From positions 14,541 through 78,540 of IMG/VR virus record IMGVR_UViG_3300041413_000047: 64,000 nt of DNA, one strand, 5' to 3'. The position numbers and the translations under genes are program-made. Positions 60,189 through 63,189 of the stretch are shown here, one piece after another. Numbering within the stretch: the stretch's first letter is position 1; every line of letters begins with the position of its first letter. The notes under the pieces were generated by a model that was not told where the DNA came from, did not search any database, and worked only from the letters and a program-made list of their open reading frames with translations. The DNA comes from a virus. Taxonomy: Duplodnaviria > Caudoviricetes.

Positions 60189-61949
60189 CTACTCCACGGC
60201 GACGGCCTGCGCCTCCCATGCCGACTGCGGTACGAGCCGCCACGTCTGGGTGTCCTCGCAGCGCTCTACATCCGGGCGCAGCGCGCCGGCCGCATCCCGC
60301 ACCTGCTTGTCGCCGAGCCCGGTCGCTGTCTCCAGTTCACGGCGCGTCATGTTCCCGTATTTGACGAGCGCTGCCCGCACCTTGTCCTGGTTTGTGTCGC
60401 CCGGTACGGGCAGGATCAGCCGCTTTCCCACCGGGGCTTTTGCCGTCTCCCGCCCGATCCTGGCGACCTCCGCCGTGAACTCGTCCTTCGTCAGCCACAT
60501 GCCCTTGTACGGGGCGGGCTGCTGATGATCTGGCGACTGAAGAAGGAACTTCCCGGGCGCATCGAGGTCGCCGGGCTCCCAGCCGGGGGTGGTGCCGAAG
60601 ATGAACCGGCGGTGGTCCCGGTCCGCCATCCGCGTCGACAGGCGCACCGAGTAGTTCCCGCGGGCGTCCGTCGTCCCGCCGAACACTTTCCGGGACGGCT
60701 GCTGCGTCGCCGCGATCAAATGAATGCCCGCAAACCGGGCCAAAGCCAGCAGCGATTCGAGCTTCTTTGACGCCGGATCCTTCTTCCACGGCCCGGCATC
60801 CGCCTGCCGCACCAGCTCCGCCAGCTCATCGAACACTGCCCACAAGGCGGGCCGGCCGTGCTTGACCGGGTCCCACTCCTGGTCGCCCGCCTGCGCGAGG
60901 ATCTCGCCGCGCTCGTTCAGCTCCTGCTTCAGCCAGTCGAGGAAGGCGTGCGCCTGCTCCGGGGTCTGTGCGAGGTCCTGGAGGATCGGCAGCATCGGCG
61001 TCATCTCCGGCGCGCCCGGCTTGAGGTCGCAGCCGTAGACCACGATGTCCGGCCGGTCCGCGAGTTGGAGAACTATGGACCGGACCAGCGTGGACTTACC
61101 GAACTTACTGGACCCGGCCACCAAAGCATGCGCGTAGGCCAGTTCAACGAGGACCGGGTTCAGGAACCGGTCCACGCCGAGAACCACGGGATCGGTGAAC
61201 CGGGCCGCGGACTGCCGGGCGTACGGGATGACGGTGGACAGGGGGTCGCCGTCGATGAACTTCGCGACGAGCTGGTTCGTGAGCGCTCCGTCTTCGAGGA
61301 CGAACTCCCCGGCCACGCCCATGCCGCCTGCGACTTTGGGCCATGCGGTCCGTAGCTTGGTCCGGTCCAGGTTCACGGGCAGGTCGAGGACGGCGGTCCA
61401 GCCGGTCTTGGTCCGTTCCACGGTGCAGCCCGGCAGTTCGGCGGCGAACAGTTCATGGACCACGGTCCGCAGTCTGGTCTCCTCGACGGTCCGCCCGGTC
61501 AGGTTCGGTCCGGGCAGGACTGGTTCAGGGGCGGTCATTTCGACGAGCCGGTGGTGGGCCATCTGCTGCCGGATGAGCGCGGTCTGCAGTTGGACCGCGG
61601 CCTGGTCCACCTTGATCTGGTCGTGCCGCAGGTCGTGCCGGTGCTTGACCATCGCCCCGAACACGGCTGCCGCACTGATCACCCACCCGTAGATCCCGGC
61701 GAAACCGCCGACCGTGCCGGTGAGCCACGCCTGCGCGGATACGCCGGCCGCGGCGAGGGAGCCCCAGGCGAGGGCGGGCGGCCACTTCTTCGCGAAGGAC
61801 ACGAAGGACAGCTTCCCGGCGGCGATCGCGGTGACGAACTCGACGGCGGCCGCGGTGGTGCCGTAGATGTCGTCGGCGGTGAGGGCTGCGGCGGAGACGA
61901 GGCTGGGAATGGTGAGGGCGGTGACGATGTCGGTGCGGTCGATCTTCAC
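60189..61949 (-). CDS. traB: TraB-like FtsK/SpoIIIE DNA translocase
   Basis: N-terminal TM segments; Walker A GSSKFGKS, Walker B AVFDELAEL, LALARFAGIHL.AATQQP; C-terminal winged helix (MTRRELETATGL). Confidence 0.85.
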   Translation of the reverse strand: MKIDRTDIVTALTIPSLVSAAALTADDIYGTTAAAVEFVTAIAAGKLSFVSFAKKWPPALAWGSLAAAGVSAQAWLTGTVGGFAGIYGWVISAAAVFGAMVKHRHDLRHDQIKVDQAAVQLQTALIRQQMAHHRLVEMTAPEPVLPGPNLTGRTVEETRLRTVVHELFAAELPGCTVERTKTGWTAVLDLPVNLDRTKLRTAWPKVAGGMGVAGEFVLEDGALTNQLVAKFIDGDPLSTVIPYARQSAARFTDPVVLGVDRFLNPVLVELAYAHALVAGSSKFGKSTLVRSIVLQLADRPDIVVYGCDLKPGAPEMTPMLPILQDLAQTPEQAHAFLDWLKQELNERGEILAQAGDQEWDPVKHGRPALWAVFDELAELVRQADAGPWKKDPASKKLESLLALARFAGIHLIAATQQPSRKVFGGTTDARGNYSVRLSTRMADRDHRRFIFGTTPGWEPGDLDAPGKFLLQSPDHQQPAPYKGMWLTKDEFTAEVARIGRETAKAPVGKRLILPVPGDTNQDKVRAALVKYGNMTRRELETATGLGDKQVRDAAGALRPDVERCEDTQTWRLVPQSAWEAQAVAVE

Positions 61950-62008
61950 GGTGTGGGCTCCGCAGAGACAGGGCGGCCCCCGCACGGTGGCGGGGGCCGG
62001 GCGGGTGG

Positions 62009-62920
62009 TCAGCGGTACTGGTTGAGGAGGGCCTGCGCGGCGGTGAGCCTGCGGTAGGCGGTCGACTCGGGGACGCCGAGGATCTTCGCGGCGGTCGGCT
62101 TGGTGATGTGCTCGCCGAGCTTGAGGCGGCGCAGAAGTTCGGTGACCTGGTCCTCGGGCTGGATGGGCTGGGTCGGGCGGTCCGGGCGGTTCACGGCGGT
62201 CTGGACCGGCTGGACCGGGGCCGGTTCGGGTGTGGTCTCGATCTGGTTCACCGGCTGGTCAGCGGCCGGTTCGACGGACTGAACCGGCGTGGACTGTGGC
62301 TGAACTGGGGCGCGGTCCAGTTGGGCGGTCGGCGGGTCTGCGGGCTGATCGAGGGCGTACTTCTCGCGCTCGCGCCGCACCTTGGCGAGGGCGTTCTGTT
62401 CAGCGCGCCGGGCGTGGATCTCGCCGAGCTCCAGTGTCAGCCACGCCTGCGTGTCCCGGTCGAGACGTCGCGCGGTGACGTACATGAGCAGCCACCACAG
62501 GCCCTTGGCGAGGGCGGACACGAGCGCGCCGAACGCACCAATCCACGGCTTGTCGAGGAGCGCCCCGTGGGTGAAGATCGCGGCCATGGATGCGAGGAGG
62601 GCGAGCCAGCCGATCGTCTTGGGCACCTTCTGTCGGCCGGGCTCGAACCGGAGTACATACTCCATCGCCATGGCGACGATCCACGCCAGATCAAAAATCC
62701 CGGCGATCATGTAGGCGGCCCATGCGGGCGCGAGCTGGGTGAGCATGGCGCCGACGCTGACGGTGGACCAGATGAGGGCGCCCGTGACGACGACTGCGGT
62801 GGCTGCCCCGACTCCGCGCATGATGATCTCGTCGGGGGTGAGCGGCGGGAGCGCGACGGGCTGCTCGACGTAGTGGGTGCGGCCGTTGCGGGTGACCGGA
62901 CGGACGGTCGGGGTGTTCAC
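62009..62920 (-). CDS. Spd-like (DUF2637-type) membrane protein with C-terminal HTH
   Basis: Four TM segments, coiled coil, Pro/Gln linker, AKILGVPESTAYRRL; directly upstream of traB. Confidence 0.7.
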   Translation of the reverse strand: MNTPTVRPVTRNGRTHYVEQPVALPPLTPDEIIMRGVGAATAVVVTGALIWSTVSVGAMLTQLAPAWAAYMIAGIFDLAWIVAMAMEYVLRFEPGRQKVPKTIGWLALLASMAAIFTHGALLDKPWIGAFGALVSALAKGLWWLLMYVTARRLDRDTQAWLTLELGEIHARRAEQNALAKVRREREKYALDQPADPPTAQLDRAPVQPQSTPVQSVEPAADQPVNQIETTPEPAPVQPVQTAVNRPDRPTQPIQPEDQVTELLRRLKLGEHITKPTAAKILGVPESTAYRRLTAAQALLNQYR

Positions 62921-62940
62921 GGGGTTCCTCCGGGCGGGGG

Positions 62941-63189
62941 TCAGGGGTGTGTGTGGGCGGTGCGGGGCCGGTGGGTGCGGATCTGGTGGGCGAGGTAGAC
63001 GAGACCGGCGGCGAGGACGGCGGGGCCGGGGTTGTCTGCCGCGGCGTCCGCTGCGCCTTGGACGATGGCGAGGAGGAGGCCGACACCGAGCTGTGCGAGG
63101 TGGCCGGTGGTGTCGGGGTGCATGGCGGCGAGGATGGTCAGGGCGACGCCGAGGAGGTTGCGGATCAGGTGGTTGGGGCGGGATCGCAT
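62941..63189 (-). CDS. small hydrophobic Spd-like protein
   Basis: Hydrophobic 82-aa ORF in the transfer module. Confidence 0.5.
   Translation of the reverse strand: MRSRPNHLIRNLLGVALTILAAMHPDTTGHLAQLGVGLLLAIVQGAADAAADNPGPAVLAAGLVYLAHQIRTHRPRTAHTHP

Follow-up and report, generated by a model that had tools for sequence, protein, structure and literature searches.

The mycelium of a Streptomyces host is divided by cross-walls, and the spread of phage infection or lysogeny through such a mycelium is poorly understood. For Streptomyces plasmids, the literature describes TraB, which pumps double-stranded DNA (dsDNA) after its C-terminus has recognised a cis site named clt. Published clt sites contain direct repeats together with imperfect inverted repeats (PMC3583192), and the associated protein SpdB2 is a pore-forming, DNA-binding protein with four transmembrane (TM) helices (Thoma et al., PMC4447253). 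SpdB2-like proteins of the phages phiC31 and VWB have been suggested as possible helpers in the spread of phage DNA (PMC4447253), and in the plasmid-phage pZL12/phiZL12 a major tra gene, together with two genes next to it, is required for conjugal transfer (PMC3583192; PMC4487206). Actinophage annotations routinely list FtsK-like translocases with no function given (PMC11536984, PMC13587820, bioRxiv 10.1101/2024.02.16.580700), and in the literature searched neither a function nor a cis site has been described for these genes. Here we report a locus that resembles the TraB/clt arrangement in a 64,000-nucleotide stretch of DNA (the window), which comprises bases 14541-78540, the last 64 kb, of the single 78,540-bp virus record IMGVR_UViG_3300041413_000047. 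The locus encodes a predicted membrane-anchored DNA translocase and a predicted four-TM partner protein, and it is followed by a candidate clt-like repeat site; all three lie inside the genome of a temperate Streptomyces phage. An earlier sequence-only reading of the window had named the genes TraB and Spd-like and had described the whole as a hybrid of phage and actinomycete integrative and conjugative element (AICE).

The central gene (60189-61985, minus strand) encodes a predicted membrane-anchored FtsK-type dsDNA translocase with a C-terminal winged helix and a TraB-like architecture. Its open reading frame (ORF), like the others in the window called with a script based on G+C content at third codon positions (GC3), holds 598 amino acids; the likely start at 61949, which is used by databases and homologues, gives a protein of 586 amino acids. 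The protein matches the Pfam family FtsK_SpoIIIE PF01580 at 54.3 bits (E = 1.6e-14), above the gathering threshold of 24 bits, and by profile it is a member of phrog_1358, 'FtsK/SpoIIIE-like' (5.3e-33, 114.7 bits). In an AlphaFold (AF2) model built on 40 homologues (predicted local distance difference test score, pLDDT, 88.5), the N-terminus forms four helices (residues 5-139), and the fourth continues as a long helix. Residues 155-500 form an alpha/beta subdomain and a RecA-type, FtsK-type motor, and after a linker residues 520-572 fold into a helix-helix-helix-strand-strand winged helix. The Walker A (G279, G284, K285) and Walker B (D374, E375) residues are invariant in the 40 homologues. 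The top solved folds found with Foldseek were the FtsK motor (7e-19) and TcpA, the conjugation coupling protein of pCW3 (1e-18), and by sequence TcpA was the best solved-structure match (1.9e-8, versus 1.8e-5 for FtsK). Taken together, the model, motifs and folds give the layout by which TraB is functionally defined, that is, an N-terminal membrane region, a Walker A/B motor and a C-terminal winged helix-turn-helix (wHTH). The sequence-only reading had predicted a TM-FtsK-wHTH translocase at this place, and Pfam, phrog_1358 and the AlphaFold model all bear it out. The translocase also weakly matches the FtsK-like ATPases of defence systems (mad8, 1.8e-14; SspH, 4.5e-13); a defence role was considered and dropped, as these were generic FtsK-domain matches and no defence neighbours were present.

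The gene directly upstream of the translocase gene, in every viral contig that extends that far, encodes a 303-amino-acid partner protein (62009-62920, minus strand; phrog_35187, 2e-34). Its model shows an N-terminal beta-hairpin, four TM helices and a long helix to residue 191, followed by a disordered proline/glutamine (P/Q) linker and a confident three-helix helix-turn-helix (HTH) at residues 255-302, in agreement with the four-TM, coiled-coil and HTH protein proposed earlier. Searches against Pfam and NCBIfam placed it in no family. Its best viral fold match was phiC31 Gp25 (7.9e-6), followed by phage DUF2637 proteins (2.7e-3 and 8.5e-3); Gp25, which may be the phiC31 SpdB2 homologue, is not a member of Pfam DUF2637. 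The partner shares its layout of four TM helices and an HTH_23-like C-terminal end with the DUF2637 protein of a plasmid, and both proteins have weak matches to HTH_23. As modelled, the partner fits the architectural definition of SpdB/DUF2637 proteins (four TM helices, a DNA-binding end and a gene adjoining the translocase gene). Among deposited phages, homologues were found only in SF3 and TurkishDelight, and no ORF in the two ~10-kb partner loci of these phages matched the translocase profile.

Two small hydrophobic genes, also pointed out before, were confirmed on either side. The first gene of the conserved trio (62941-63354, minus strand) encodes a conserved protein of 137 amino acids with a hydrophobic C-terminal half; copies with 50-80% identity lie upstream of the 303-amino-acid gene in seven viral loci and two prophages, and no family match was obtained in Pfam and NCBIfam searches. 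The second (59458-59703, plus strand), convergent with the translocase gene, encodes a protein of 81 amino acids with two TM helices and is not conserved in relatives. It has weak, sub-threshold NCBIfam matches to SepX/GlpR (4.9e-5; 23.5 bits against a cut-off of 110), a Streptomyces divisome and cross-wall protein. This match may be noise from TM composition; if true, it would be of interest beside a putative septum-crossing pump.

Comparison across loci of the DNA after the translocase stop codon revealed, immediately 3' of the gene, a candidate cis site of clt-like form (60055-60188, minus strand), with repeats of 8-11 bp. Read in minus-strand order, the site starts with GCAGGTCA (60175-60182), continues with the direct repeats GGGGGTGGAT (60151-60160) and GGGGGGTGAAT (60139-60149), a partial copy, CCGTGGATC (60116-60124), and an inverted copy, ATTCACCCC (60084-60092), and ends with CTGCCACACTG (60057-60067). 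The same layout is conserved across loci: GCAGGTCA, two to three direct G-rich repeats with an 11-12-bp period, one to two inverted copies, and CTGCCACACTG. A scan for clusters of exact k-mers missed the site, its copies being degenerate, and three of the six copies of GGGGTGRAT in the 78-kb genome fall within these 80 bp of it. Canonical traB loci served as a positive control, and in these an 8-mer (CCTGACACC-like) occurred three to five times no further than 500 bp from the traB stop codon. An Rfam search of the intergenic element returned only a chance microRNA match (E = 0.4). From its sequence and position, the 3' repeat cluster next to the translocase gene suggests a TraB-clt-like arrangement and a candidate recognition site. 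The terminal element CTGCCACACTG is almost invariant ~120-130 nucleotides after the translocase stop codon in most loci, across all three repeat types described below; it may belong to the cis site or be a promoter element.

The repeats occur in three types, each paired with its own recognition helix in the winged-helix domain: KQVRDAAGAL with GGGGTGGA (type A), KQVLDAARAL with GGGGTCGGA (type B), and RQVLKAIEGL and close variants with GGGGACC (type C). Repeat type and the type of the winged helix's third helix agree in 23 of 23 loci, as they do in six further metagenome loci (29/29), and the type-matched repeat core is 46 times denser in the 205 nucleotides that follow the stop codon than in the remainder of the loci. 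When type is placed on a tree of residues 30-510, at least seven changes are required where two would suffice, which implies several joint moves of the C-terminal domain and the site from one backbone to another. The HTH of the 303-amino-acid partner is constant and does not vary with repeat type.

The module belongs to the phage by several lines of evidence. The record begins and ends with the same 127 bp and thus closes as a 78,413-bp circle, and the translocase gene lies 44 kb from the phage attachment site (attP) in one direction and 33 kb from it in the other. The free attP postulated earlier was confirmed: its core (16571-16600, plus strand) adjoins, just after its end, the tyrosine integrase gene (15109-16407, plus strand; Pfam Phage_integrase, 1.7e-16), and it matches the 3' end of Streptomyces tRNA-Val(TAC) in 29 of 30 bases, a match that is single-copy and inside tRNA-Val in five of five Streptomyces genomes. 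Twelve IMG/VR contigs encode the translocase at 71-91% identity, and downstream of it the viral contigs carry the same PP2C, sugar-nucleotide, terminase large subunit (TerL) or head-fusion genes. Translocases with 58-87% identity were further found at ten genome loci, nine of them in Streptomyces and one in a metagenome bin labelled Gemmatimonadales. The latter locus (L017, DATCWW010000006.1) is a 4.5-kb contig with a 76% identical translocase and type B repeats, and its label is most likely a binning error with Streptomyces phage DNA. Among species-representative Streptomyces genomes the translocase occurs in 2 of 301, versus 23 of 201 for canonical TraB. Metagenomic members are many, all 120 homologues listed of 365 being at least 73% identical.

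The 120 kb surrounding the gene were compared for S. flaveolus JCM 4032 (G001) and S. yokosukanensis DSM 40224 (G003). Both genomes carry integrated prophages in which the trio of 137-amino-acid protein, 303-amino-acid protein and translocase lies between homologues of early genes and the tape measure gene. Their translocases are ~75% identical to that of the window, while most other shared genes have 28-62% identity and one early gene reaches 90% in G003. A homologue of the capsid protein is absent from five genomes carrying the translocase, which shows exchange of modules rather than absence of a phage; head modules have been exchanged among relatives and the translocase module retained. In G001:C12 and G003:C10, set against 39307-41052 of the window, there is no homologue of the capsid protein, and the tape measure protein is ~40% identical. 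The integrases of the two prophages are not orthologous to that of the window; the integrase was dropped as a marker of prophage ends in relatives for this reason, and flanking phage genes were used instead. Given the circularity of the record, the distance to attP, the conservation and the placement in prophages, the module is a set of phage genes and not a neighbouring element; it has the appearance of an old and conserved set of the actinophage 'FtsK-like DNA translocase' kind rather than of a captured conjugative element. The sequence-only reading was right to place the translocase inside the phage, as the 127-bp overlap closes the record and the trio lies among phage genes in relatives. 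An attachment site or host boundary between translocase gene and phage, which that reading had named as its refutation, was looked for and did not appear.

In our working model, the genes from 63354 to 60189 and the repeats at 60055-60188 would act as one conserved phage module, encoding a membrane-embedded, hexameric-type dsDNA pump of the FtsK family. The C-terminal winged helix would load the pump on the 8-11-bp repeats just 3' of its own gene, and the pump would work with the membrane partner that bears four TM helices and an HTH. It would recognise the phage's own dsDNA and pump it through a membrane or a septal barrier, and replicating or excised phage genomes could then spread to other hyphal compartments, neighbouring hyphae or prespore compartments without virions. 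Statements on the anatomy of the module alone are made with high confidence. We infer that the winged helix binds DNA, that there is insertion in the membrane and that DNA is transferred at all. Of the functions considered, the class that TraB/clt with Spd performs for Streptomyces plasmids ranks as the likeliest, with chances that we put at about even. More tentatively, and with the balance of our judgement tilting somewhat to the other side, this may be a widespread lineage of temperate Streptomyces phages with a self-specific DNA-transfer system, consisting of pump, four-TM partner, clt-like site and at least three specificity types swapped as cassettes, that moves genomes without virions. 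Virion-free transfer, if true, would give an integrative tailed phage a second transmission route that is independent of receptors. The model of pump and site would also explain why the translocase is among the best-conserved genes in relatives that have swapped their capsid genes. The locus offers a concrete and testable model, with a pump, a partner, a 130-bp site and three natural specificity variants.

A number of observations weigh against a transfer function of this kind. No more than ~100-250 bp separate the winged helix from the repeats, and a co-inherited cassette could give the 29/29 agreement without any binding. No 8-mer in the genome was clearly over-represented, skewed or similar to the FtsK-orienting polar sequences (KOPS). 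The translocase is not a member of the canonical Streptomyces TraB family (NCBIfam NF041214, plasmid_TraB), which it matches at 36.5 bits against a cut-off of 800 and only in the P-loop region (residues 285-435); canonical TraB proteins from ten Streptomyces genomes scored 7-16 bits against its motor. The name TraB cannot be kept in the sense of a family, and the TraB-like architecture itself is real. The same holds for the name Spd: against Pfam DUF2637 (PF10935) the 303-amino-acid partner gave nothing even at E = 10, PF10935 was found at 24 other places in five Streptomyces genomes with the prophage copies of the partner not among them, and profile-profile alignment to DUF2637 yielded an hhalign probability of 0.25%. 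A relationship to DUF2637 at the sequence level was rejected on these null results. Among the ~50 proteins scanned, with ~35 small ORFs outside the scan, no par or rep genes and no AICE-type Rep (RepSA, RepAM, Prim-Pol) were seen, nor was a GntR-type TraR/KorA or kil-kor regulator seen among the proteins scanned. To these are added the function that other authors have assigned to such genes, their host range and the folding of the repeat region, all of which bear on the first of the rival explanations.

That rival explanation is an intracellular phage DNA-handling ATPase, which would act in replication, concatemer resolution or segregation within one compartment and for which the repeats would be a loading or regulatory site or a terminator. 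We regard it as unlikely, while giving it serious weight. The translocase gene stands at the distal end of a long block of early and replication genes. FtsK-like genes are common in phages of non-mycelial hosts (Mycobacterium, Bacillus), so that the role of the family need not involve hyphae, and the authors who described such phage genes give their function as unknown or replication-related (PMC11536984). The repeat region, located between convergent genes, folds as a strong hairpin (-72.8 kcal/mol, z = -3.55) and is a possible terminator. However, an alifold consensus keeps only eight pairs, between repeat and inverted copy, and no long conserved stem, and a terminator would not need tandem direct copies with an 11-12-bp period. 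The four conserved N-terminal helices of the modelled translocase, together with its obligate four-TM partner, likewise point to a probable membrane machine rather than to a cytoplasmic ATPase.

A second group of explanations accepts the predicted combination of a membrane anchor and a sequence-specific DNA pump and lets it act at the envelope on incoming DNA, either in assisted genome entry (a T5-like second-step transfer) or in superinfection exclusion with three specificity groups. This we consider improbable. If packaging starts at terS and proceeds toward the late genes, the module, 5-9 kb upstream of the presumed terS, would lie in DNA expected to enter first; this argument depends on an assumed pac site and packaging direction. 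The discrete helix and repeat types resemble immunity groups, and the matches to mad8 and SspH might be read as favouring exclusion. These matches, however, reflect generic P-loop similarity, the neighbours of the module match no defence family, and a self-site carried in the phage's own DNA agrees better with self-transport than with exclusion. That the translocase is part of a separate AICE or conjugative plasmid beside or inserted in the phage, a caveat which the sequence-only reading had itself raised, is effectively refuted: in its favour are that this reading ended at base 64000 and that the closest conjugative protein tested is the Tra of a small plasmid (58.6 bits), and against it stand the circular record with a single attP 33-44 kb away, the phage genes on both sides of the module in every relative, including the two integrated prophages, the lack of any G+C break, and the failure to find a second integrase or Rep nearby.

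The circular record, the full tailed-phage gene set, the integrase and attP identify the element as a complete, non-integrated, integrative temperate siphophage of Streptomyces, and the claim of an intact phage proved correct. Most genes of the window lie on the minus strand, and its G+C content is 65-71% throughout, with no break at the translocase module. Profile searches identified TerL (46661-48070, minus strand; phrog_2, 1.2e-17), the portal protein (44228-46036, minus strand; phrog_776, 6e-122), a MuF/protease-type fusion of 1029 amino acids (41245-44334, minus strand), the major capsid protein (39307-41052, minus strand; phrog_777, 8e-126), the major tail protein (37695-38372), a head-tail adaptor (35763-36593) and the tape measure protein (30060-33944, minus strand; several tape-measure PHROGs, best 1.5e-26). 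They further gave an HTH repressor-like protein (18323-19369), two antirepressor-like proteins, an exonuclease VIII-like protein and a cytosine methylase. The earlier statement that the packaging genes lie within 6 kb of the translocase gene holds only for an unverified terS candidate at ~54.3-54.7 kb, which has no PHROG family match; TerL is 12 kb away. A megablast search with 44-64 kb of the window against phage and plasmid collections found no related record.

Several neighbouring features deserve mention in their own right. In the 1029-amino-acid head protein (41245-44334, minus strand), residues 25-207 match an RNA-ligase/2H-type PHROG (phrog_2659, 1e-28), and residues 600-1019 match PHROGs whose annotations read portal protein, head maturation protease or structural protein of the virion. 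Upstream of TerL (48113-53618, minus strand) lie sugar-nucleotide and glycosyltransferase genes, among them an RmlA-like nucleotidyltransferase (NTP transferase; 52956-53618, minus strand; Pfam, 2e-40) and a glycosyltransferase (48113-48796, minus strand; phrog_14775, 4e-43); such genes are also present in the relatives L009 and L015. Between the translocase module and the packaging genes is a gene for a PP2C-type protein phosphatase (55873-56796, minus strand; Pfam, 3e-10), which is 72-85% conserved in four relatives. An 11-bp unit (GTCGCCGTCGTG-like) is present in four to five tandem copies at L003:12940-12995 (contig coordinates; ~1.6 kb before the start of the window), in a gene-poor stretch of the early region; this array is a candidate iteron or origin, or an operator array.

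The phage translocase scores 23.9 bits against the chromosomal FtsK model (NCBIfam NF007615; cut-off 1566), and with 586 amino acids it has no linker. FtsK proteins of the hosts have 927-958 amino acids and score ~220 bits on PF01580, versus ~43 bits for the prophage copies of the translocase. In FtsK (2ius/6t8o) the linker is long, and the protein acts on the chromosome, at the division septum, whereas TcpA of the Clostridium perfringens plasmid pCW3 (PDB 6o1w), which ties with FtsK as a fold match of the translocase, works with the multi-protein Tcp apparatus; the identity of the translocase to FtsK and TcpA is 18-20%.

By profile, the translocase belongs with the actinophage 'FtsK-like DNA translocase' proteins (phrog_1358), which include Streptomyces phage Gilgamesh gp10, Mischief19 gp79 and proteins of cluster J mycobacteriophages. 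Its identity to proteins of deposited phages is only 24-34%, and the exact module is found in no deposited phage. The best phage match is Gilgamesh gp10 (31.5% identity), encoded a few kb from terL and the integrase gene and followed by a membrane protein. Against the translocase motor, Gilgamesh gp10 scored 123 bits and a protein of a 130-kb Gilgamesh-like plasmid 178 bits; the corresponding scores were 58.6 bits for the closest conjugative protein tested, the Tra encoded beside a DUF2637 gene on a 7-kb plasmid, 34 bits for chromosomal FtsK and 28-43 bits for AICE Tra proteins. In a FastTree phylogeny of motor domains, the phage family joins the Gilgamesh type with a support of 97. A clade of phage and Gilgamesh types with canonical TraB, excluding FtsK and AICE Tra, received a Shimodaira-Hasegawa-like (SH-like) support of 95, to which the long branches leave little weight. 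As a separate observation, at least seven Streptomyces 'plasmids' of 125-132 kb (H102-H108), circular where checked (NBC_00536), encode TerL proteins 76-95% identical to that of the 129-kb phage Gilgamesh (L001), and an FtsK-like translocase of the Gilgamesh type is present in at least five. These plasmids resemble phages of the Gilgamesh type maintained in plasmid form (phage-plasmids), although a tyrosine integrase is annotated in Gilgamesh itself.

AICEs are defined by Int, Rep and Tra within 10-60 kb and by the absence of virion genes (te Poele 2008; Ghinet 2011). The phage has two of these components, Int and an FtsK-domain protein, and it carries a full virion module. Its description as a hybrid phage-AICE was overstated, since no AICE-type Rep was among the proteins scanned and the module is a conserved phage gene set instead. 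SpdB2/DUF2637 proteins resemble the 303-amino-acid partner in their four TM helices, helical or coiled region, DNA-binding end and a gene that adjoins the translocase gene. The order differs, in that the partner gene is upstream of the translocase gene, whereas in the 7-kb plasmid the DUF2637 gene is downstream of the Tra gene.

As to what is known already, FtsK-like genes of actinophages, SpdB2-like phage genes, the idea that phage DNA may spread and the transfer genes of pZL12 have all been described. In the literature searched we found no description of a conserved pump of TraB architecture with its partner inside an integrative tailed-phage lineage, nor of a cis repeat site for a phage FtsK-like protein with three co-varying specificity types. 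The plasmid-phage pZL12 (Zhong et al. 2010; also pSLE1), compared by description, is alike in joining tailed virions and Streptomyces-type transfer genes in a single replicon. It is an autonomous plasmid with repA and parAB and without stable integration, whereas the phage described here has an integrase and an attP matching a tRNA gene.

In organisation there is a close likeness to TraB/clt of the pSVH1 type, with which the phage module shares the predicted N-terminal membrane region, the FtsK-type motor, the wHTH, the repeats at or after the 3' end of the gene and the adjoining genes for membrane proteins. The repeat motifs differ: the phage loci have GGGGTGGA, GGGGTCGGA or GGGGACC, and canonical traB loci have CCTGACACC. 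They also differ from GACCCGGA, the TraB repeat motif reportedly described by Vogelmann in 2011, which occurs only four times in the phage genome, at scattered positions. The carrier differs as well, being a plasmid or AICE in the case of TraB/clt and an integrative tailed phage here. If true, the model would make the boundary between transduction and conjugation less sharp for an integrative phage too, beyond the case of the plasmid-phage pZL12.

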